The notes under the pieces: model-generated
What the model saw: the letters and a program-made list of their open reading frames with translations, nothing else
Database searches by the model: none
Told to the model about the DNA's origin: nothing
Source: a virus
Lineage: Duplodnaviria; Heunggongvirae; Uroviricota; Caudoviricetes
Length of the DNA stretch: 35,061 nt
IMG/VR virus record: IMGVR_UViG_2654587570_000013
Coordinates: 1-35,061 of that record
Direction: 5' to 3' (one strand)
Position numbers and translations under genes: made by a program
Shown: one piece after another, positions 962-34,755 of the stretch
How positions within the stretch are numbered: position 1 is the stretch's first letter
Layout of the letters: every line of letters begins with the position of its first letter

Positions 962-997
962 GCCCCTATCGTTATAATACGCGGTAGGGGCGTTTTT
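962..997 (+). terminator. intrinsic terminator after the 81-aa gene
   Basis: GCCCCTAtCG ... CGgTAGGGGC stem (one wobble), 10-nt loop TTATAATACG, then GTTTTT. Confidence 0.6.
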
Positions 998-1010
998 GTT
1001 TGGAAATGGT

Positions 1011-2690
1011 ATGAAAACTAAACTGTATTCGTATATTCGCTTCTCGTCTATGCGTCAGAATGATGGTTCGAGTTATGAACGACAAATCAGGATGGCGAGA
1101 GAGGTTGCGGCAAAGTATGACCTTGAACTGGTAAATGATTATCAGGATCTGGGTGTATCTGCGTTTAAGGGTGCTAACTCTAAAACAGGGGCGCTATCTC
1201 GTTTCCTTGATGCAATTGGTAGATCCGTTCCTGTTGGTAGCTGGCTATTCATCGAGAACTTGGACCGTTTATCCCGTGCCGATATTGTCAGTGCGCAGGA
1301 GTTATTCCTTTCAATAATCCGTAGGGGGATAACCATTGTTACTGGCATGGATAACAAGATCTACTCGCTGGATACTGTTACCGCTAACCCGATGGACCTG
1401 ATGTTCTCCATCCTTTTATTCATCCGTGGTAATGAGGAAAGCCAGACTAAGCGCAATCGTACTAACTCAAGCGCATTGATTAAGATTAAAGCTCATCAAG
1501 AAAATCCACAAAATCCGGCAGTGGCTATCGAGGAAGTTGGAAAGAATATGTGGTGGACTGATACCACTTCCGGTTATGTGTGTCCCGATCCGGTCTTCTT
1601 CCCTATTGTTCAGGAGGTTGTGGAATTACGCAGGAATGGACGGTCTACCGCCGAGATACTGGATCACCTTAACGCGACATATACACCACCACCAGCCGCA
1701 AGTCACAAGAGGCATTCAAACTGGTCACGAGCAATGATTGAAAGGTTGTTCCATACCCGCGCTTTGATTGGTATCAAGGAAATCTCTGTAGATGGCGTTA
1801 AGTATGAGTTAAAGGATTATTACCCTCGTGTGCTAGATGACGCTGAGTTTTATCACCTTAAGAAAAGCATTGGTGTTAGAGCATGTAACTATGGAGACAA
1901 AGAAGAAGCTAAACCGATCCCCCTGCTTAGTGGTGTTAATCTGCTGAAATGTGAACATTGCGGTTCCGCTATGGTTAAGGTGAAAGGAACTAACAAACGG
2001 CCTAACCAATATCGTTATTCATGCGATGCAATGCGCTCTAGTCGTATTGCATGTGTGCATACAAACTGGAGTTTTCGAGGTGATCAATTAGAGAAAGCTG
2101 TATTGCAATTGCTGGCTGATAAAATCTGGATTGCTGAGGATAAGGCTAATCCTGTTCCGGCTTTGAAAGTACAGATTGATGAGATATCACGCAAGATTGA
2201 TAACCTGATTACCCTTTCTGCTATGACTGGAGCAACGAAGGAGTTAGCCGACCAGATTACTACCCTCAATAGCGAGCGTGAAACACTCTATAATCAGATT
2301 AAGATGGCAGAAGAGGAAATGTATTCTGTGGACTCTCAAGGCTGGGAGAAGCTCGCAGAATTTGATTTAGAAGATGTTTATAACGAGGATCGCATTAAGG
2401 TCCGGTTTAAGATTAAGCAAGCTCTAAAACGGATCGGGTGTAGCAGGATTGACAAATACAAAAACTTGTTTGTATTGGAATACATTGATGGCAAGACCCA
2501 GAGAGTTGTAATAGAAAATTCAAGAGGACCGAGGAAAGGACAAATCTTTGTCGATTTGAAAACTATCAATGATAGGCAGATTCTGGAGAGTAACGGGCTT
2601 GTTCTGCATCCATGTTTAGACATGCTGACAGATAAAGACTGGAAGCCAGAAGAGGAAATACCAGGTCCATTACAGGAATTTGGAATTTAA
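1011..2690 (+). CDS. large serine recombinase (integrase-type, 559 aa from ATG 1011)
   Basis: N-terminal resolvase-type catalytic motif YSYIRFSSMRQ plus ENLDRLSRAD. Its size, a central recombinase region, the Cys cluster CEHCGSAM...YSCDAMRSSRIAC and a C-terminal coiled coil fit the class. The track start at 996 is TTG inside the upstream terminator, so ATG 1011 is preferred. Confidence 0.85.
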   Translation: MKTKLYSYIRFSSMRQNDGSSYERQIRMAREVAAKYDLELVNDYQDLGVSAFKGANSKTGALSRFLDAIGRSVPVGSWLFIENLDRLSRADIVSAQELFLSIIRRGITIVTGMDNKIYSLDTVTANPMDLMFSILLFIRGNEESQTKRNRTNSSALIKIKAHQENPQNPAVAIEEVGKNMWWTDTTSGYVCPDPVFFPIVQEVVELRRNGRSTAEILDHLNATYTPPPAASHKRHSNWSRAMIERLFHTRALIGIKEISVDGVKYELKDYYPRVLDDAEFYHLKKSIGVRACNYGDKEEAKPIPLLSGVNLLKCEHCGSAMVKVKGTNKRPNQYRYSCDAMRSSRIACVHTNWSFRGDQLEKAVLQLLADKIWIAEDKANPVPALKVQIDEISRKIDNLITLSAMTGATKELADQITTLNSERETLYNQIKMAEEEMYSVDSQGWEKLAEFDLEDVYNEDRIKVRFKIKQALKRIGCSRIDKYKNLFVLEYIDGKTQRVVIENSRGPRKGQIFVDLKTINDRQILESNGLVLHPCLDMLTDKDWKPEEEIPGPLQEFGI

Positions 2691-25693: not shown

Positions 25694-27601
25694 TTAGAAC
25701 GATGTTACCCAACTACGGCCTCTATTTGGAGGTCTGACGATGTTTTGACGTTGCGGTCGTGTGATTGGCTTAGTTTCTTCGATTTGCTCGTTAGATTGCG
25801 ATTTAGGAGCTTTTACGGGTTCTTCGACAACGCGGTTTAAGCTGTCTTTCATTGCAATGAGTTTATCCCATGACATTTTTGAAAGGACGTAGCGAGAAGC
25901 CGCATAGCTATAAACCAGACAGTCGAGAGCCTCGTTTCGGGTACTACCTGGATTTTTCACCCAACGCACGCCAGTAGTAGTACGCTTGATGGATTCACTC
26001 AAAAGCTGATCGAGATAATCATCAGGAACGGTTTCTGATATCTCTAAACCAATATGAGGATTGTCTTTCAGGTTTCTAACCAGCATTTCACGAACAGCAG
26101 ATTTACCAACGTTAACACCCAGCATAAGCAATTCATGACCACCTGTGCGGGTAGGTTTAACCGGAATCACTGGAGCATTACCAGATGAACTACCTTTGAT
26201 CGCGTGTAGGTTCTTCCACTTACCGCAAATACGGTATCCGGCTTGAGTGAATCGACCGTTCGATGTATCAAGGAAGCTGGCGAGCATAGGAACACGATCA
26301 CCCGATACAGTAGTAAATTTGGTTTTATGGAAGTTGATTAATCTATCCCATACAGGGGATTCATATCGTTCACAGTTATGATCGTAAAAGCTGCGGTGAT
26401 CCAGAATGTAAACCTTATCTTTCGCTACACCTAAGATGGTAGTTTCTGCGCGATCTAATTGCTGGTCAGTACCCGCACATAAGAAAATCACGTCATCAGG
26501 GATATTCTCGATAGAAACATCTGTTTTGAGTTGTTCCAGTTCATTTGCTTCTACTGCCGTGTCCTGATCGTCGTATACCTTGCCTAACACGGTGTTAAAA
26601 AAGGATTGTAAATCAAAGGATTGCCACGCATGACTAAAATCAACCACACAAGCGCGAATCGTGCTGAAAGGTGAATACAGACGACTGATCCAGAATCCTG
26701 CTACCTCACTTTCACGGGTTGCTCTCCACTCTCCTTGTGCTACTGCCCTGATTCGTTCCCCTTCTGTCCATGCGTTCTTACAGTGGGGGCAAATATAACG
26801 AGCGGTATCAGGATCGGGTAAGTTCTTACCATCAATGTTACGCCATTCAAATTGAACGTTTTCCCACTCGATCACCTGGTGTCTACCGCAATGAGGACAC
26901 GGAACAAAAAACATACGCATATCGCTTGATAACCATTGCTGGTTAATGCTTCCCAGCTTACTGGTCGGGGTACTGGATACGACTAATCGACCTTCATCGC
27001 CAAAGGTAGTTAAACGGTTAGCAGCCAGTGCCACCGGATCACCTTCTTCTGAGGCTGTGGCAGCATCAATTTCGTCAAGTAATCCAACCTTTGCGGTCTT
27101 ACCACGTAGGGTTGATGGGCTGGTAAGCGATACCATGTACAGGAAGTGATTCGTTTTTAACTGGAGTTGGTTGTTGTTGTTAACCGCGTTGCGATCATTC
27201 TTGTCTGTAACCACGTCTTTCAATGCATCACATGCTTCGATAGACGGTCGGATCTTACCCGCGAGATATTGAGACATTTCTTTAGCGGTTGATTGTCCGA
27301 TAATCATATTGCATGGATCGTTAGCCATCTGGTTAAACAGGATACCGTTTAGGATGGTAGTTTTTCCGATCTGCGCACTGGTCATCAGTACATACTTTTT
27401 CTTATTCTCAAGGAAAGGAGCATCAATCATGCCTTTCTGGAATGACAGCAATTTAACTTTATCCCCCGCTTGAGGACCATCTACCAGCACCATATTCGCT
27501 TCGCACCATTCAGACGGAAGGAGCTTAGGCGGTGGAGTGATATATTTTGCGGCATTTTTAAGAATCTTTTTTAATTTTGCCTTATTAGAAATCAGTTTCA
27601 T
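25694..27601 (-). CDS. terL: terminase large subunit, lambda GpA-type (635 aa)
   Basis: Walker [10 protein letters not shown] and Walker B GLLDEID. The paired Cys motifs CPHCGRHQ...[10 protein letters not shown] are typical of GpA-family terminases. The size (635 aa) fits lambda gpA. Confidence 0.9.
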
Positions 27602-28285: not shown

Positions 28286-28314
28286 AGGTGAACATTCACT
28301 TTAATTTGGAGAAA

Positions 28315-28548
28315 ATGACTATGACTACTAAAGCTACTCGCGGTCGCCCTACCCGTTTTAATCGTGAACAGATGGCTGATATTGCCTACGCTTACTATAC
28401 AGCGGATCGTGGTAAGGAAGCGAAAGAACAGATTCTTAGTGAACATGGGATCTCAATCGCCCAATTCTATAAGAATATGAAGAAGTTAGACATTAAATTC
28501 TATGTTCAGATCGGTGATGGTCAGATCGTAGAAGCAACAGGTTTTTGA
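28315..28548 (+). CDS. small HTH DNA-binding protein (77 aa; alternative start 28321)
   Basis: ATRGRPTRFNREQMADIAYAYY...GISIAQFYKNMKKLDIK is paralogous to the 31655..31834 product. The GGAG position favours ATG 28321. Confidence 0.6.
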   Translation: MTMTTKATRGRPTRFNREQMADIAYAYYTADRGKEAKEQILSEHGISIAQFYKNMKKLDIKFYVQIGDGQIVEATGF

Positions 28549-29871: not shown

Positions 29872-29900
29872 ATCATAAAAAAGTTAGAAAATTTTGTCAA
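29872..29900 (-). promoter_or_regulatory. strong sigma70-type promoter (leftward)
   Basis: Minus strand reads TTGACA (29900-29895), a 17-nt spacer, then TATGAT (29877-29872). Confidence 0.6.
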
Positions 29901-29935: not shown

Positions 29936-30394
29936 TTACAGCATATCTAAGCCTTCATCATGGCCGTAGAAGCCACCGTGAGAAGAGAAACAGATTGGTG
30001 CGTAGTCGTCGTCATCTTCGTCTTGTTCATCTTGTTCTGGGGCTTCCTGAGCGGGTTGTTTGCCGTAATCAGCCATAATCTGGTCAAGATCAGCGATCCC
30101 ATAGTAAGAGCCTAAATCAACGTCATATTCACGAACATCAAACGGCAGGTCATCACGAACAATAATTGCTGGAATATCGTTGTATTGAAGACGACCTTCA
30201 TCAGTAAGACAGTCGATGATCACAGTAGGACGACCATTTCGTTTTAAAGCGTAGAAAGCAGTTGAGTAGTTGGAGTCTTCGGAATGACGAATGATGTTAT
30301 AACCACGATTAGCGAAAACTTCTAGCATATGGAAGTTACCATAGTTTTCAGAGTCCAGACCCAGAAGTACGAAAGGAGTTTTAGTATTGATCAT
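29936..30394 (-). CDS. hypothetical early protein with acidic C-terminal tract (152 aa from ATG 30394)
   Basis: AGAGGA RBS before MINTKTPF. The N-terminal alpha/beta-like domain is followed by EAPEQDEQDEDDDDY. It is the first gene leftward of the ORF-free control region. Confidence 0.6.
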   Translation of the reverse strand: MINTKTPFVLLGLDSENYGNFHMLEVFANRGYNIIRHSEDSNYSTAFYALKRNGRPTVIIDCLTDEGRLQYNDIPAIIVRDDLPFDVREYDVDLGSYYGIADLDQIMADYGKQPAQEAPEQDEQDEDDDDYAPICFSSHGGFYGHDEGLDML

Positions 30395-30593
30395 AGTGGT
30401 ATCCTCTAAAAGAAAGTGAATCAAACAAATTACACTAGTATTTATACGAGAAAAAAATATCTATTTGGAAGTGATTGGATTCAGTCGGCTTCGCCTCCTT
30501 CATGATTTTGATTAAATCATCATCAAAACGAAGGAGTATCTTTAGAATATAAGAATCTTTCTTTTGGAGAAATAATAATCAGGAAGCAATTTG

Positions 30594-30837
30594 GCAACCG
30601 AAGGTTGCAATCCCGAAGGGATACCAATACCTTTCTAGAAAGTGATTGTTACTCACTTCGTTCGTTTACTAGAATCAGTTAGTAACTAGCATTAAATCCC
30701 TTTCTAAGAAAATCCTTTCAAAAGTGAGTGAACGCCGTAGGCGTGAACGTGAGCGAAGCGAACTATCCAATCCCTTTCGAATCCTGCTTGCAGGTCTTAG
30801 AAGGTGTTGATGGGCGCTTCGCGCACGGCTACGCCGT
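30594..30837. repeat. field of GC-clamped mini-hairpins with 3-nt loops
   Basis: GCAACC-GAA-GGTTGC (30594-30608), ATCCC-GAA-GGGAT (30610-30622), ACGCC-GTA-GGCGT (30732-30744), GC-GAA-GC (30753-30759), GCGC-TTC-GCGC (30814-30824) and ACGGC-TAC-GCCGT (30825-30837). A perfect palindrome CTTTCTAGAAAG sits at 30631-30642. Confidence 0.7.
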
Positions 30838-30967
30838 ATTCTTTTTGCGAGATCTTTCTTGAACGTAGTGAGAGAAAACGAGCAAAAAGGAGAACGTTAG
30901 TTCGAATTTTATATTCTATGGTCTGTGGGGTGAAATGTTTTTCAAGATCATACACTTATGAGATTGA

Positions 30968-31092
30968 AGTGTAGGGTTAGTGTAGGTGTGTAGGTTTCAT
31001 AGTGTAGGTTTGAGGGTGTTATAGTGTAGGTTTACTGGCTAGTGTAGTGTAGGCCAATCCCTTTAAAGTGTAGGTTTGTAGTGTAGGGTTTT
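30968..31092 (+). repeat. iteron array: 8 direct copies of (A)GTGTAGG(TTT)
   Basis: GTGTAGG starts at 30969, 30980, 30988, 31002, 31024, 31047, 31068 and 31081, all in the same orientation. Three copies are exactly AGTGTAGGTTT. Confidence 0.85.
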
Positions 31093-31093
31093 C

Positions 31094-31110
31094 ATCAAAA
31101 ATTTTGATAG
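31094..31110. repeat. AT-rich palindrome ATCAAAAATTTTGAT; 15-mer CAAAAATTTTGATAG repeated at 31245-31259
   Basis: The 15-nt palindrome is perfect. The identical 15-mer occurs at 31096-31110 and 31245-31259. Confidence 0.7.
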
Positions 31111-31195
31111 AAAATTCTTGTATATTATTTAATCAGAAAATCACCAAAAATCGCGGTAACTGCATGATTTAAAAGGAATGGTCAAAAGGTCACCG

Positions 31196-31204
31196 TGCTA
31201 TAAT
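31196..31204 (+). promoter_or_regulatory. candidate extended -10 promoter (TGcTATAAT)
   Basis: TGCTATAAT is a perfect extended -10 element. No good -35 is present. Confidence 0.4.
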
Positions 31205-31284
31205 AGGTTATAAAGGTTGATAATCGTTATCCGCCATTTTCACACAAAAATTTTGATAGTCTTTTCTCGTTTAGGTCAAGTGTA

Positions 31285-31313
31285 TTGACAACTGTCAAGG
31301 ATTATTTTATACT
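31285..31313 (+). promoter_or_regulatory. strong sigma70-type promoter (rightward)
   Basis: TTGACA (31285-31290), a 17-nt spacer, then TATACT (31308-31313). Confidence 0.65.
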
Positions 31314-31447
31314 TTTTATCGCTGGTGGGGGTTGAAATTTTCTAAACAGCCCCCATATAGATGATAAGCAAGATTTTTCGTGTATAAATACATGCATGAA
31401 ATGATTGTTCACTTCTGAAAATCCCCTGATTCACTGTTAACACATAC

Positions 31448-31475
31448 AGCACTGGTTAAACACACAGTGCTTTTT
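31448..31475 (+). terminator. intrinsic terminator inside the rightward leader
   Basis: AGCACTG / 10-nt loop / CAGTGCT followed by TTTT, about 155 nt downstream of the predicted start. Confidence 0.65.
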
Positions 31476-31533
31476 CGATTAAATAATGTACGAAATGATT
31501 AATTATTAATCTTCTCTTTAGCAATTCGTGCTC

Positions 31534-31559
31534 CCACTGATCGGATATACAGTGGTTTT
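31534..31559 (+). terminator. second hairpin with U-tract in the leader
   Basis: CCACTG / 10-nt loop / CAGTGG followed by TTTT. It has the same CACTG...CAGTG design as the first. Confidence 0.45.
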
Positions 31560-31654
31560 ACAGGGTTTTCTGAAATGACTTTTATAAATAGAAGTATCGA
31601 GGGCGAAAAGCTCTTTTTATTGTCCTTATTAATCCACATTTGAGGAATCTACTT

Positions 31655-31834
31655 ATGGCTAGACCTGTTAAGTTTACTCGTGAAATGATTGTTGATATTG
31701 CTAAACGCTTTTATGGCGATACTGAACGAGGCGGCGAGAATTTCTTTAAGAAGGAAGGAATTGATAGAAGCGGATTCTATAAGTTAATGAAGAAATACGA
31801 AATTCAGATAAAGATTAACGTTCAAGTTTGTTAA
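31655..31834 (+). CDS. small HTH DNA-binding protein (59 aa)
   Basis: GAGGA RBS 8 nt before ATG 31655. MARPVKFTREMIVDIAKRFY...GIDRSGFYKLMKKYEIQ is paralogous to the 28315..28548 product. Confidence 0.6.
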   Translation: MARPVKFTREMIVDIAKRFYGDTERGGENFFKKEGIDRSGFYKLMKKYEIQIKINVQVC

Positions 31835-31950
31835 TCCACTTTCACTGAGAATTATATGATGGCTTTAAAAATAAAAAGCCTCCCTTGTTGCAGCAAAGGA
31901 GGCTTGAAATGAACAATTAAAACTAACACAGCATTCAGGAGTATTTATAA

Positions 31951-32946
31951 ATGAAAAATTCTAAGCGCATCACCTTCAACCTGTTTATTAAATCCAACGG
32001 CAAACTGAACATTACCGTCATGGAAGGTAAAGCAAGCAAACAAGACAAATCCTTTGAAGTAGTATCCGGTAAGACTCTGACCGAAATGCGTCAGAATGCT
32101 GGCATCAAAGACGGTGCTGAATGGCAGATCACTAACCGTTTCGACAAACGTCACGTTAAACCTACACTGGTAGAAGGTGAATCCGTTTATTGCTTCGCTC
32201 GTGCTGTTAAAGCCGATGAAACTTACTATCTCGCTGTTGTTAAAACTGCTTCCGGCTTCCGTGCTGTAATGCATCACAAGAGCAAGCGTAACGAATACGG
32301 CGTAGAGACCCAGGAAGTCGCAAAACGCTTCCGTACTGTTGCTACCGAATCCACTGTAAAGGATGTTTCTGGTACTGTTAACACCGCTAAAGGCGGTTCC
32401 TTCTACAACCACGCATTACAGGTTACTTCCTCCTTCTTCTGCAAAAAAGAAGCACAGAAAGAAGTTTCTCCGGTAGTAGTTGAAGAAGTTAAAGAAGAAG
32501 TTGCAGTGGTTGAATCTTCCGAAGTTGAAGCACTGAAAGCACGCATTGCTGAACTGGAAGCTGAAAACGCATCTCTGAAAGCTGAACTGGCAGCACAGGA
32601 AACCACTTTCGAAGTAGCAGCGGTTGAAGTTGAAGCAGTTGAAGAAAAATCCATTGATGAAGAACTGGAAGAACTCCTTAACTATCGCTGGGGTGTTGTT
32701 GCAGAAGTAGAACAAGAAGTTGCTCCGGTAGTTGTTCCGGTTGAAGTTGAAAAAGAATCCGCACCTGTTACTAACTTTGAATCCCTGCGCAATAACTTTA
32801 TGGCTAAATTCAAAACCACTTGGGAAGATACCGAAGAAGAACAAGAAGAGATTGAAGTAAACGAAGACGAGATCCGCGAAGCACAGATGGCACTGCATGA
32901 CGCTATCTACGACACCAACTACAGCGCCTACGCATACGCAGCTTAA
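31951..32946 (+). CDS. abundant-type acidic coiled-coil protein of unknown function (331 aa)
   Basis: AGGAG RBS. A basic N-terminal ~170 aa domain is followed by a coiled coil (ALKARIAELEAENASLKAELAAQE) and acidic V/E-rich repeats. Extreme codon optimisation leaves a single TTA/CTA/TCA-type codon (the TTA at 32416) across 31951-32946, keeping the antisense frame open. Confidence 0.75.
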   Translation: MKNSKRITFNLFIKSNGKLNITVMEGKASKQDKSFEVVSGKTLTEMRQNAGIKDGAEWQITNRFDKRHVKPTLVEGESVYCFARAVKADETYYLAVVKTASGFRAVMHHKSKRNEYGVETQEVAKRFRTVATESTVKDVSGTVNTAKGGSFYNHALQVTSSFFCKKEAQKEVSPVVVEEVKEEVAVVESSEVEALKARIAELEAENASLKAELAAQETTFEVAAVEVEAVEEKSIDEELEELLNYRWGVVAEVEQEVAPVVVPVEVEKESAPVTNFESLRNNFMAKFKTTWEDTEEEQEEIEVNEDEIREAQMALHDAIYDTNYSAYAYAA

Positions 32947-32961
32947 TAGAGGGGTGAATCT

Positions 32962-33204
32962 ATGATGAATCAAAACAAAGAATTTCTGGGTAATCTGATG
33001 TTAGAAATTACCAAAATGAAAGAAAGAATGGTAGCGATGGAATCAGAGATTAAAACTCTTAAAGCTGATAATAAGGCGTTGAGAAAGTCCTTAAAGCTGA
33101 TTGATGAGACTAATGCGGTTATGATGGATCATGTATTCCCTGAGTGGCGAAATGAAACTAAACCTACACAACATAAGAAACTTACACTTCGAATTGTTGC
33201 ATAA
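32962..33204 (+). CDS. small coiled-coil protein (80 aa)
   Basis: GAGGGG RBS. Heptad-rich MKERMVAMESEIKTLKADNKALRKSLKL. Confidence 0.6.
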   Translation: MMNQNKEFLGNLMLEITKMKERMVAMESEIKTLKADNKALRKSLKLIDETNAVMMDHVFPEWRNETKPTQHKKLTLRIVA

Positions 33205-33228
33205 AAAAAAGGGACTCCGAAGAGTCCC
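33203..33228 (-). terminator. intrinsic terminator (leftward)
   Basis: Minus strand reads GGGACTC-TTCG-GAGTCCC followed by TTTTTTTT. Confidence 0.7.
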
Positions 33229-33303
33229 TAGTAAGTTTAGGTTAGGTTTGCACAACAAAGATGAGGTTATAATGAACATAATGCTACATTATTCTTTAAA
33301 GCC

Positions 33304-33330
33304 AGAAAAATAACCGCCCCGAAGGGGCGG
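33304..33330 (-). terminator. intrinsic terminator (leftward)
   Basis: Minus strand reads CCGCCCC-TTC-GGGGCGG followed by TTATTTTT. Confidence 0.6.
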
Positions 33331-33904: not shown

Positions 33905-34456
33905 TTAAGACACATCAAATTCATCGTCTTCTTCTGGTTCTTGTTCCGGTTCATCCATTAATGGTAATTCTTCTTCCTCGTCTTCTCCTAAATCCGCATT
34001 TTCGAACAAGTCCCCTACTTCATTTAAACGACGCTCGATGATCTCCCTTAGCTTATTCTTCAATGTTTTCTGGTCGGTGGCAGATTCAAGAATTTCTAAA
34101 GCGTCGATTGTGGCGATCTGCAAAATAGTCTGTTTCACCTTCCCGCAATATTCCGCTAGTTCCTGCTCAACATACCCGACCGGAATCAGGAGGTTCATTG
34201 CTTCCTGGTTCTCTCGTTCGGCTGCATCTGCTAATGCTCTCTCACGGCGTAATTTCTCTACGTCGATTTGTTCCTTGACAGTAGTTTCCCTGAGTGGACT
34301 GATGATATTTTTTGCTACCCACTCGGTCCCCTCTTTGAGTGGCACGCGGCGGGTATTGGTATTGTAAGGTAGTCCCCTTTCTAACCATTTCTTAGCGGCG
34401 TTAATTGTATAGCCGTATAAGCGGGAAATTTCTGTAAGGGTTAATTCTTCTTTCAT
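33905..34456 (-). CDS. terS: terminase small subunit, lambda Nu1-like (183 aa)
   Basis: AAGGAGG RBS. The N-terminal winged-HTH LTLTEISRLYGYTINAAKKWLERGLP and the VEKLRRE...ADAAERE helix resemble Nu1 as I remember it. The C-terminal tail is acidic. Confidence 0.6.
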   Translation of the reverse strand: MKEELTLTEISRLYGYTINAAKKWLERGLPYNTNTRRVPLKEGTEWVAKNIISPLRETTVKEQIDVEKLRRERALADAAERENQEAMNLLIPVGYVEQELAEYCGKVKQTILQIATIDALEILESATDQKTLKNKLREIIERRLNEVGDLFENADLGEDEEEELPLMDEPEQEPEEDDEFDVS

Positions 34457-34755
34457 CCGGTTATCCTCCTTTAAATTTGCGTAAAATTATTTATCTGATC
34501 TGCGCATTCAGGAGAGCGCCTAAAACGCTTTATAACGAAGGGAAAGATCGAGGCATGGAAAGGGATTGGCGTGTGTTAATAGTCGCGTAGCGACCGCGCT
34601 GGTGGGCTGCACTGCACCTGTTTTGAAATCTCACACGCACATCAAATACCGGGGTGCCGAAAACTCCCTTTATTTCACCCGTGGAACAGTACCTTTTGAT
34701 TTTGTCAAGTCTTTTTTATAAATAATCGAAAATATTTTTCACACGAGGGCAAATC

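Follow-up and report, generated by a model that had tools for sequence, protein, structure and literature searches.

The DNA analyzed here is IMG/VR record IMGVR_UViG_2654587570_000013, positions 1 to 35,061 (the window, 35,061 nt). It looks like one complete element of ~35 kb and is best explained as a member of an uncharacterized family of ~35-kb temperate siphophages. Its landmarks are a serine integrase, a large terminase, and an early region (Table 1). In the early region a gap without genes (30425-31654) separates a leftward gene for a 152-amino-acid (aa) protein from rightward genes for proteins of 59, 331, and 80 aa. The gap holds an array of direct repeats, an AT-rich tract, a field of small hairpins, and promoters. 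The repeats change in step with the N-terminal domain of the 331-aa protein, and the gap is interpreted below as most likely the replication origin, of the iteron type, and the early control region of the phage.

The element is inserted in ycdX, beside ghrA, in E. coli chromosomes, and ycdX is also the insertion site in Salmonella. Homologues of the noncoding region were found at 61 places in 58 of 5,426 complete E. coli genomes, every one of them chromosomal, and at none among the 72,556 plasmids searched. A similarity search of isolated phages returned no relative of the region except a 75-nt module shared with RB49-like phages. The closest large terminase among isolated phages is only 45% identical, and annotation therefore cannot be borrowed from a characterized relative. 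Among the early proteins, searches against Pfam, PHROGs, and NCBIfam assigned a family to only two, a Rha-family regulator and a TerS-like protein. The preliminary description of this DNA had reported no recognizable initiator, helicase loader, or Par protein. The same three collections agree, and neither these nor a helicase, primase, or CI-type repressor was recognized in the open reading frames (ORFs) scanned.

No ORF of 60 aa or more lies in the gap, as first described; the longest ORFs that touch it have 44, 52, 56, and 46 aa. The equivalent gap in relatives measures 1258-1447 nt. It has no annotated coding sequence in nine RefSeq E. coli genomes and is free of genes in the calls for L011, L012, L038, and L040 (L numbers denote individual loci used for comparison). 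The sole exception is a 66-aa ORF called in L041, in a leader that is not homologous. In such leaders, the Salmonella relatives of repeat type B' (defined below) carry a 35-66-aa ORF beginning M[TA][HD][YC]LQKSKQHKILKNAIFDFWKGG... (L041 3270-3470, L039 301-410, and the equivalent place in L040), with no clear ribosome-binding site. Rfam gave no match at gathering score in the window, and at E values up to 10 only chance-level matches within 30300-31900; scans of the window for tRNA and tmRNA found nothing.

The gap was aligned from nine E. coli prophages. The comparison set was then widened by 22 IMG/VR loci, retrieved with an invariant 19-mer from the leader, and by six more diverged loci, retrieved with a neighboring protein. 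Repeat and protein could both be read in 32 E. coli and Salmonella loci. The alignment across relatives, which the preliminary description had suggested as a check, showed hairpin stems that change by compensation and a repeat type that co-varies with the 331-aa protein.

Table 1. Positions of the features discussed (window coordinates; a full stop in the strand column marks features without strand)
Feature	Position	Strand	Remarks
Serine integrase gene	996-2690		
Large terminase gene, lambda gpA type	25694-27601	-	heads the siphovirus structural module, which runs down to the tail fibers
Early region	27.6-35 kb		
Promoter-like element TATAAATAC	30438-30455	-	leftward; upstream of the 152-aa gene; putative promoter
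Mini-hairpin GGC-GAA-GCC	30487-30495	- (GNA loop)	GGGC-AAA-GCCC or GGGC-TAAA-GCCC at the same position in relatives
75-nt module	30507-30584	+	common to RB49-like T4-type phages; ~80% identity, E 1e-7
Putative rightward sigma-70 promoter	30520-30548	+	TCATCA (30520-30525), 17-nt spacer, TAGAAT (30543-30548)
Adjacent mini-hairpins GCAACC-GAA-GGTTGC and ATCCC-GAA-GGGAT	30594-30622	+	each with CCGAAGG
AATCCCTTTC-type half-sites, CTAG-centered palindromes	30626-30647, 30695-30704, 30709-30718, 30769-30778	.	with AAGTGAT repeats (30626-30778); presumed protein-binding sites
Box form AATCCCTTTCTAGAAAGGGATT	box field		presumed protein-binding
Mini-hairpin ACGCC-GTA-GGCGT, then GAGC-GAA-GCGA motif	30732-30760	+	
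Mini-hairpins GCGC-GAA-GCGC and ACGGC-GTA-GCCGT	30814-30837	- (GNA loop)	
Long imperfect hairpin	30841-30889	+	C-GTA-G cap (30864-30868); read by eye
Eight direct repeats (A)GTGTAGG(TTT)	30968-31092	+	one orientation
AT-rich tract	31093-31180	.	candidate unwinding element; GC 0.28 (minimum, 31050-31149); directly right of the array; conserved across E. coli repeat types
Palindrome ATCAAAAATTTTGAT	31094-31108	.	opens the AT-rich tract
Putative promoter P1, extended -10-like TGCTATAAT	31196-31204	+	by eye and conservation; flanked by ATCAAAAATTTTGAT-type palindromes
Second palindrome copy AAAAATTTTGAT	31243-31257	.	two mismatches to ATCAAAAATTTTGAT
Strong early rightward promoter TTGACA-17-TATACT	31285-31313	+	11 of 12 consensus positions (scan)
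Untranslated leader, 340 nt	31316-31654	+	hairpin 31316-31345; hairpin-plus-T-run elements T1 31448-31475, T2 31534-31559, T3 31599-31620
59-aa protein gene	31655-31834	+	heads the early rightward operon; conserved between repeat types
331-aa orphan protein gene	31951-32946	+	variable beta-rich N-terminal domain (~170 aa), coiled coil, acidic linker, short C-terminal module
80-aa coiled-coil protein gene	32962-33204	+	swapped together with the 331-aa gene; sub-threshold coiled-coil matches only

The core of the repeat, GTGTAGG, occurs eight times at 30969-31087, on the plus strand only, where chance alone would give ~2 copies over all 35 kb of the window; none of 100 shuffles matched the observed total. 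The eight same-orientation iterons of the preliminary description were thus confirmed. Successive copies are spaced by 11, 8, 14, 22, 23, 21, and 13 bp, and the GC skew of the array is +0.55 to +0.75. Five types of repeat were found among the loci, each in a one-orientation array with spacings mainly of 11, 13, 21-23, and 41-42 bp. The window type (A, GTGTAGG, eight copies) accompanies a protein beginning MKNSKRITF.... GTGCAGG (six copies, L011) accompanies a homologue whose N-terminal domain is 48% identical to that of the window protein and 42% to that of L012. Type B, TTTCAGGGGCAAA (about nine copies; L004, L006, L038, and others), is found with a protein beginning MLFSANFF..., and type B', GAGGGGCAAAAAT (seven to eight copies; L040 and L041), with a 54% relative of that protein. 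Type C, CGGGGA (16 copies; L020 and L025), is found with a protein beginning MKQNNFSITVY....

Repeat type matched the type of the N-terminal domain of the 331-aa protein in 32/32 loci, with no discordant case. The relation is graded: proteins with N-terminal domains at least 76% identical share the same repeat, identities of 42-54% go with a core altered by one to a few bases, and identities of 29% or less go with an unrelated repeat. The sequence that is swapped consists of two separate blocks, and the ~860 bp that part them, with the promoter, the leader, and the 59-aa gene, are conserved. In types B and C, the 152-aa gene and the left end of the gap are retained at 72-97% nucleotide identity, as are the AT-rich tract and the stretch from the promoters through the leader to the 59-aa gene. 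No similarity is detectable in the spacer or the repeats, nor in the genes for the 331- and 80-aa proteins. That two discontiguous blocks change together is hard to explain without an interaction between protein and repeat, and we infer from these comparisons that the 331-aa protein binds the array. The 80-aa protein is possibly its partner, to judge from the joint swap.

The preliminary description had left the cognate binding protein of the iterons unknown; the 331-aa product is now a candidate. It had also put forward the small helix-turn-helix proteins, the Rha-like protein, and the Nu1-like protein as binders, and these did not co-vary with the repeats: where the repeats of two loci are unrelated, identity is still 97% for the TerS-like protein and 96% for the 59-aa protein.

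Several further sequences resemble the repeats or lie within the arrays. Full-length copies (GTGTAGGTTTA) occur in inverted orientation inside the 331-aa gene (32158-32167, minus strand) and the 80-aa gene (33160-33169, minus strand). An outlying TTCAGGGGCAAAA is present at position 2184 (plus strand) of the type B locus L004, between the 78-aa gene and Rha. Such extra outlying copies are absent in L012. In the hybrid repeats AGTGCAGGGGCAAAAAT and AGTGTAGGGGCAAAAAT, the cores of types A and B' are fused (L040 3085-3135, L041 3100-3135). The type C array (L025 4217-4470) contains closely spaced G-runs, GGGGACGGGAAAGAGACGGGGAAGGG..., that fit a canonical G-quadruplex motif on the plus strand; types A and B lack it.

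All members of the 331-aa family share one domain plan. The variable, presumably DNA-binding end, the oligomerization region, and the variable C-terminal module parallel the organization of lambda O. The family is tiny (five clusters among 1.84 billion representatives in an exhaustive HMMER search) and confined to this prophage family, and the window protein matched nothing in Pfam, PHROGs, NCBIfam, or the PDB sequences. AlphaFold gave a poor model of the full-length protein (predicted local distance difference test score, pLDDT, 49.6); with a more diverse alignment, a usable model of the N-terminal domain was obtained (pLDDT 68). The C terminus is nearly always -AA: AYAYAA in the window protein and VRRAA or RRAA, ARAA, and DFAA elsewhere, E. 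coli type B ending instead in YCQ. These -AA ends (window 32929-32943, and homologues) are reminiscent of the C-terminal ssrA/ClpXP degron.

To the right of the array, the two ATCAAAAATTTTGAT-type palindromes lie ~150 bp apart and are kept across the E. coli repeat types, in agreement with the AT-rich palindromes reported earlier. Two rightward promoters had been described as well. The stronger was recovered by the promoter scan; P1 was read by eye, and the scan did not report TGCTATAAT at its position. The -35 element of the strong promoter lies within a palindrome, TTGAC-N4-GTCAA (31285-31298), whose arms are kept while N4 varies in all types, including those of Salmonella; it is presumably an operator. 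Conservation of both palindromes suggests that a shared repressor, and not the variable protein, controls early transcription.

The leader folds well as RNA (z-score -4.6) and has a mean identity of 87% over 20 distinct sequences, with long invariant blocks. In the T1 hairpin (31448-31471), the outer pair is kept by changes from A-U to G-C in 3 of the 20 sequences; T3 shows a one-sided G-U change and, with a loop of GAAA, GAAAA, or TTT, directly precedes the 59-aa gene in all relatives. The compensation in T1 and the presence of T3 in every relative therefore suggest that early expression is attenuated. The preliminary description had called this leader terminator-laden. Three hairpin-plus-T-run elements are indeed present, but the terminator scan flags only one (31599-31615), and the other two come from reading the sequence. 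An exact 13-nt repeat, TGAAATGATTGTT, is shared by the leader (31397-31409) and the start of the 59-aa coding sequence (31681-31693) and may be a duplication remnant or a pairing site.

The invariant 19-mer of the leader, CTCTTTAGCAATTCGTGCT (31514-31532), contains TAGCA-N5-TGCT. It also occurs exactly in unrelated IMG/VR phages (L017, L019, L030, and L034), between co-oriented genes and antisense to transcription, and there it overlaps the stop codon of the gene before it. Three matches in unrelated metagenome-assembled genomes were disregarded, since a 19-nt sequence would turn up about that often by chance in 596 Gb. With the 19-mer goes a boxA-like sequence, CTCTTTAGCAA, which agrees with the rrn boxA at 10 of 12 positions. 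A role for CTCTTTAGCAA in a nut site acting as RNA is doubtful because the 19-mer that carries it runs antisense to the genes in two of these phages (L017 and L019) and, in the Salmonella relative L038, is found upstream of the promoter.

To the left of the array, between 30594 and 30837, the preliminary description had noted GC mini-hairpins interleaved with boxes. Both are present, and the hairpins can be defined more sharply as C-G-closed stems around a GNA triloop (GAA, GTA, or GCA) on either strand. C-GNA-G hairpins with stems of at least 4 bp number seven in the window, five of them in this interval; shuffles average 0.07-0.09 and never exceed 2. Among distinct GC-rich triloop hairpins, 20 of 29 have GNA or TNC loops (32 loci scanned); elsewhere in the window the figure is 2 of 15. 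Substitutions in the stems compensate each other, and the middle base of the loop is free to vary within one stem. The first pair contains CCGAAGG twice (30598-30604 and 30613-30619), and its homologous positions carry GCCCC-GTA-GGGGC, TGCAGC-TTC-GCTGCA, GGATGC-GTA-GCATCC, or TCCAC-GAA-GTGGA. Equivalents of the hairpin at 30732-30760 are GCCAC-GCA-GTGGC and CGTC-GCA-GACG in type B and GTCCC-GTA-GGGAC in L040. In the last pair (30814-30837), stems vary by compensation (CGGC/GCCG, GGGC/GCCC, GGCC/GGCC) around TTC, TAC, or TGC loops. The long hairpin that follows has a GAA cap in L012 and, in type B, unrelated arms (ACACATGAGC-GTA-GCGAATGTGT).

The strand polarity of these elements is conserved: distal hairpins have GNA on the plus strand and the repeat-proximal pair has it on the minus strand, the exception being L011, in which the first hairpin is flipped. 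The two polarity sets together make up a 21-nt inverted repeat (30740-30760 with 30815-30835). Folded as RNA, the field gave a z-score of -4.55 on the plus strand, which no shuffle equaled, and -2.08 on the minus strand. A long-range 100-nt hairpin (30736-30838) seen in the RNA fold was rejected as a conserved unit, types B and B' keeping the local mini-hairpins only. The last hairpin is followed by a T-run in the window, but it was rejected as a canonical terminator of general occurrence, the T-run being missing in L011 and 10-12 nt away in type B.

Mini-hairpins of the GCGNAGC and CCGAAGG types are extraordinarily stable as DNA and bind single-stranded DNA-binding protein (SSB) poorly, and GNA-type mini-hairpins mark the G4 primase site, RSF1010 ssiA (CCGAAGG), and the promoters of the N4 virion polymerase (PMC13037366). 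Through this precedent of single-strand initiation (ssi) signals, the identification of the hairpins as C-GNA-G DNA elements strengthens the case for an origin. The boxes between them include three exact copies of AATCCCTTT, plus variants, and AATCCCTTT is the half-site of a CTAG-centered palindrome. Boxes of the AATCCCTTTC form recur in both orientations throughout the field, the density of CTAG is 4.1 per kb there against 1.1 per kb elsewhere in the window, and L038 has a perfect CTAG palindrome, AATTCCTTCTAGGAAGGATT.

The left end of the gap is conserved in part. The promoter-like element at 30438-30455 is an 18-nt inverted copy of 31374-31391 (89% complementary), with exact TATAAATAC at 30438 on the minus and 31383 on the plus strand, and is kept in all relatives, Salmonella included. 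TATAAATA was considered as a special late-promoter motif and dropped; it is simply common upstream of operons. The stem of the mini-hairpin at 30487-30495 is maintained across relatives despite different sequences. The composite hairpin of the preliminary description (30495-30536) is present with 72% complementarity; only its inner TGATTAAATCA part is conserved, and the outer arms are weaker in relatives. Within the 75-nt module, the -10 element reads TATAAT in L012, L038, and L003. The promoter scan gave no report for 30520-30548, and a rightward promoter feeding the hairpin field is plausible from the conserved -10. An intergenic region of RB49 (L010) and RB49-like Krischvirus has two copies of the module (1203-1275 and 1349-1420), each followed by C-GNA-G hairpins (CTCC-GTA-GGAG, TCGC-GAA-GCGA, CCGC-TAC-GCGG). 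The PeSL cassettes of RB49 and phi1 comprise GGGG...CCCC terminator stem-loops and, after these, an AT-rich tract with a consensus promoter (PMC2839356). They resemble the present region in that the RB49 intergenic region shares the promoter-like module and adjoining stem-loops; here, in contrast, the hairpins come after the promoter and have GNA triloops.

Comparison with known systems places the region closest to the iteron theta origins (P1 oriR/RepA, F ori2/RepE, pSC101, R6K gamma/pi, and lambda ori/O). With these it shares direct repeats of one orientation at helical-turn spacing, an AT-rich tract adjoining them, and, encoded close by, a protein whose presumed DNA-binding end varies with the repeat type. 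As for lambda O, the candidate initiator gene lies in the early operon and the protein may be unstable. It differs in that no DnaA-box or IHF signal and no P- or DnaC-like loader was found, arrays reach 16 copies, the repeats lie upstream of the promoter and not inside the initiator gene, and the 331-aa protein resembles the winged-helix Rep and O families in neither sequence nor fold. The early operon is also laid out like the lambda pR operon (cro-cII-O-P), with a strong promoter under a presumed operator, terminators before the early genes, and a gene for a small DNA-binding protein followed by that for the candidate initiator; unlike in lambda, no N- or Q-like protein was recognized.

The hairpins invite a second comparison. 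At the oriV of RSF1010, iterons are accompanied by two ssi hairpins, one on each of the complementary strands (PMC8567376). The region here resembles IncQ oriV (RSF1010/R1162) in its iterons, its AT-rich tract, its hairpins of opposite polarity forming an inverted repeat, and its two copies of the ssiA motif CCGAAGG. It does not belong to IncQ: no RepA helicase, RepB' primase, or RepC was recognized, there are many hairpins in place of two 40-nt signals, the hairpins lie on the far side of the repeats from the AT-rich tract, and priming would have to use host enzymes. Stable GNA or GNNA mini-hairpins are also found at the sites of G4, St-1, and alpha3 (DnaG) and at phiX174-type primosome assembly sites, where they exclude SSB (PMC13037366). 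Those signals act on single-stranded genomes, whereas here the genome is double-stranded, and hairpins that may serve in priming would be exposed only after unwinding.

Taken together, these comparisons make it most likely that the architecture is that of an iteron origin of a known kind, here joined to a protein family of orphans and to a battery of hairpins that has no described counterpart in double-stranded temperate phages. An iteron origin fits because the repeats are phased and unidirectional, an AT-rich tract adjoins them, a protein of the early operon co-varies with them, hairpins of opposite polarity lie nearby, and the genome has no other recognizable replication function. Judged from sequence, we give an even chance to the specific proposal that an iteron-type replication origin is served by a cognate orphan initiator and by hairpins that act as priming signals, the early operon being attenuated. 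The preliminary description had offered an iteron-type origin or a partition locus; the origin is still the better supported of the two.

Protein binding, origin firing, priming, and proteolysis are inferred, and could be connected as follows. Derepression of the early rightward promoter, which the presumed operator overlaps, would let transcription pass the attenuator leader and express the 59-, 331-, and 80-aa genes. The N-terminal domain of the 331-aa protein would then occupy the eight phased repeats on one face of the helix, and its coiled coil would oligomerize the bound protein. The adjoining 28%-GC tract would melt, aided by negative supercoiling behind the outward-firing promoters. 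Unwinding would free the C-GNA-G mini-hairpins, the distal ones folding on the plus strand and the repeat-proximal ones on the minus strand; they would stay free of SSB and give host primase or primosome a point of entry on each strand. A helicase, primase, or loader encoded by the phage itself would thus not be needed, and the -AA C terminus may shorten the lifetime of the 331-aa protein. In its boldest form, with a single initiator of orphan fold, a strand-polarized hairpin battery that recruits the host enzymes, and the RB49 module as a shared mobile origin or priming cassette, we consider this proposal improbable.

Several observations weigh against an origin. The N-terminal model of the 331-aa protein matched no initiator fold and no other fold, and the protein has no ATPase or HUH motif, so it is the context that suggests the label of initiator; the protein is best called a candidate iteron-binding protein and initiator. 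No helicase loader was identified among the phage proteins. DnaA boxes (TTWTNCACA, one mismatch allowed) number 67 in the window against 88 expected and do not cluster in the region, which also lacks the IHF consensus WATCAANNNNTTR. Many of the 32 loci are closely related, and the independent swaps number ~5 and not 32. Further repeat copies, inverted, lie away from the array, inside the 331-aa and 80-aa genes. Arrays of 8-16 repeats would suit centromeres or regulatory arrays equally well, and the promoter-like module before the hairpins, together with the better RNA fold on the plus strand, allows for action as RNA.

The best-surviving alternative makes the 331-aa family a transcription regulator (a repressor, an activator, or an immunity-type protein) and the repeats an operator or enhancer array for the divergent early promoters, the swaps being changes to hetero-specific regulation. 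A DNA-binding protein that co-varies with its sites is equally a hallmark of immunity regions, the array lies between divergent transcription units and 110-320 bp from the rightward promoters, and no CI-type repressor is recognizable in the phage. A DNA-binding domain followed by a coiled coil and a regulated C terminus recalls the Mu repressor. This alternative meets the difficulty that the promoter-proximal palindromes are conserved over all E. coli repeat types, which leaves a shared factor apparently in control. A position behind a strong promoter and three terminator-like hairpins would be odd for the gene of a maintenance repressor, and 8-16 unidirectional phased repeats beside a 28%-GC tract are atypical operators. 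We judge regulation of this kind unlikely.

A transcribed hairpin field, which would be compatible with an origin, seems to us rather unlikely. Here the promoter at 30520-30548 would make a structured RNA of ~290 nt (~30556-30846), either regulatory or antisense in its action or aimed at the repeats, where it would prime or form an R-loop. The conserved -10, the presence of the module before hairpins twice in RB49, and the plus-strand fold all favor it, as do a terminator-like call by the scan for the last hairpin and its T-run and one variant (L022) with a G-T wobble on the plus strand. It is opposed by the lack of an Rfam family even at E values up to 10 and by the C-GNA-G preference on either strand, a signature of DNA stability that would leave half of the hairpins reading UNC in RNA (PMC13037366). 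The displaced or missing T-runs, the loss of the predicted long-range pairings in types B and B' while local hairpins are retained, and the silence of the promoter scan also speak against it.

Partition, the other function in the preliminary description, is very unlikely. The repeats would be a centromere for a ParR- or ParB-like adaptor, the 331-aa protein, during a plasmid-like stage. A coiled-coil, acidic, adaptor-like protein is encoded nearby, and one-orientation repeats phased by ~11 bp resemble R1 parC, whose repeats are bound cooperatively by the small adaptor ParR. The present element, in contrast, is integrated: all 61 of its E. coli matches are chromosomal and none is on a plasmid, it has a serine integrase and a defined insertion in ycdX, and profile searches of the phage ORFs found no ParA-, ParM-, or TubZ-like NTPase. 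Least likely is a cosB- or pac-type packaging site for the small terminase: the phage has a lambda-type gpA large terminase and the Nu1- or TerS-like protein once proposed as binder, but that protein does not track the repeats, which follow the 331-aa protein instead, and its gene, at a distance of 2.8 kb, belongs to a separate operon that reads leftward and has a noncoding region of its own upstream.

The neighboring early genes show some further features. The stretch 33905-34755 takes in the TerS-like gene, which forms a leftward operon of its own at a distance of 6.3 kb from the gene for the large terminase. Upstream of the TerS-like gene is a noncoding stretch with a AATCCCTTT box (34559, minus strand), a GTCGC-GTA-GCGAC mini-hairpin (34582-34594), and a GC-rich stretch, which we regard as a candidate location of cos. 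The convergent operons are separated by two strong leftward terminators (33205-33235 and 33314-33330). The first is GGGACTC-TTCG-GAGTCCC with T8 and the second CCGCCCC-TTC-GGGGCGG with a T-rich tail; the latter is also a GNA hairpin on the plus strand. A second near-consensus promoter, TTGACA-17-TATGAT (29872-29900, minus strand), reads leftward; it has the 152-aa gene on one side and the genes for the 51-aa protein and Rha on the other. The 59-aa protein, which matched no family in Pfam, PHROGs, or NCBIfam, and a 78-aa protein (28312-28548) are paralogues with ~36% identity and a shared RPxxFxRE motif, encoded in separate plus-strand operons.

If the region is an origin as proposed, the replication module of a widespread, unstudied prophage family would be defined, in a genome whose early genes are without any annotation. 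The 331-aa proteins would constitute a new initiator family with swappable DNA specificity, represented by five natural repeat-protein pairs. The hairpin field would be the first case of GNA DNA mini-hairpins as a conserved cis element of a double-stranded temperate phage, such hairpins being known so far from single-stranded phages, IncQ plasmids, and N4. The natural swaps make the binding hypothesis directly testable and could supply orthogonal protein-DNA pairs for engineering.

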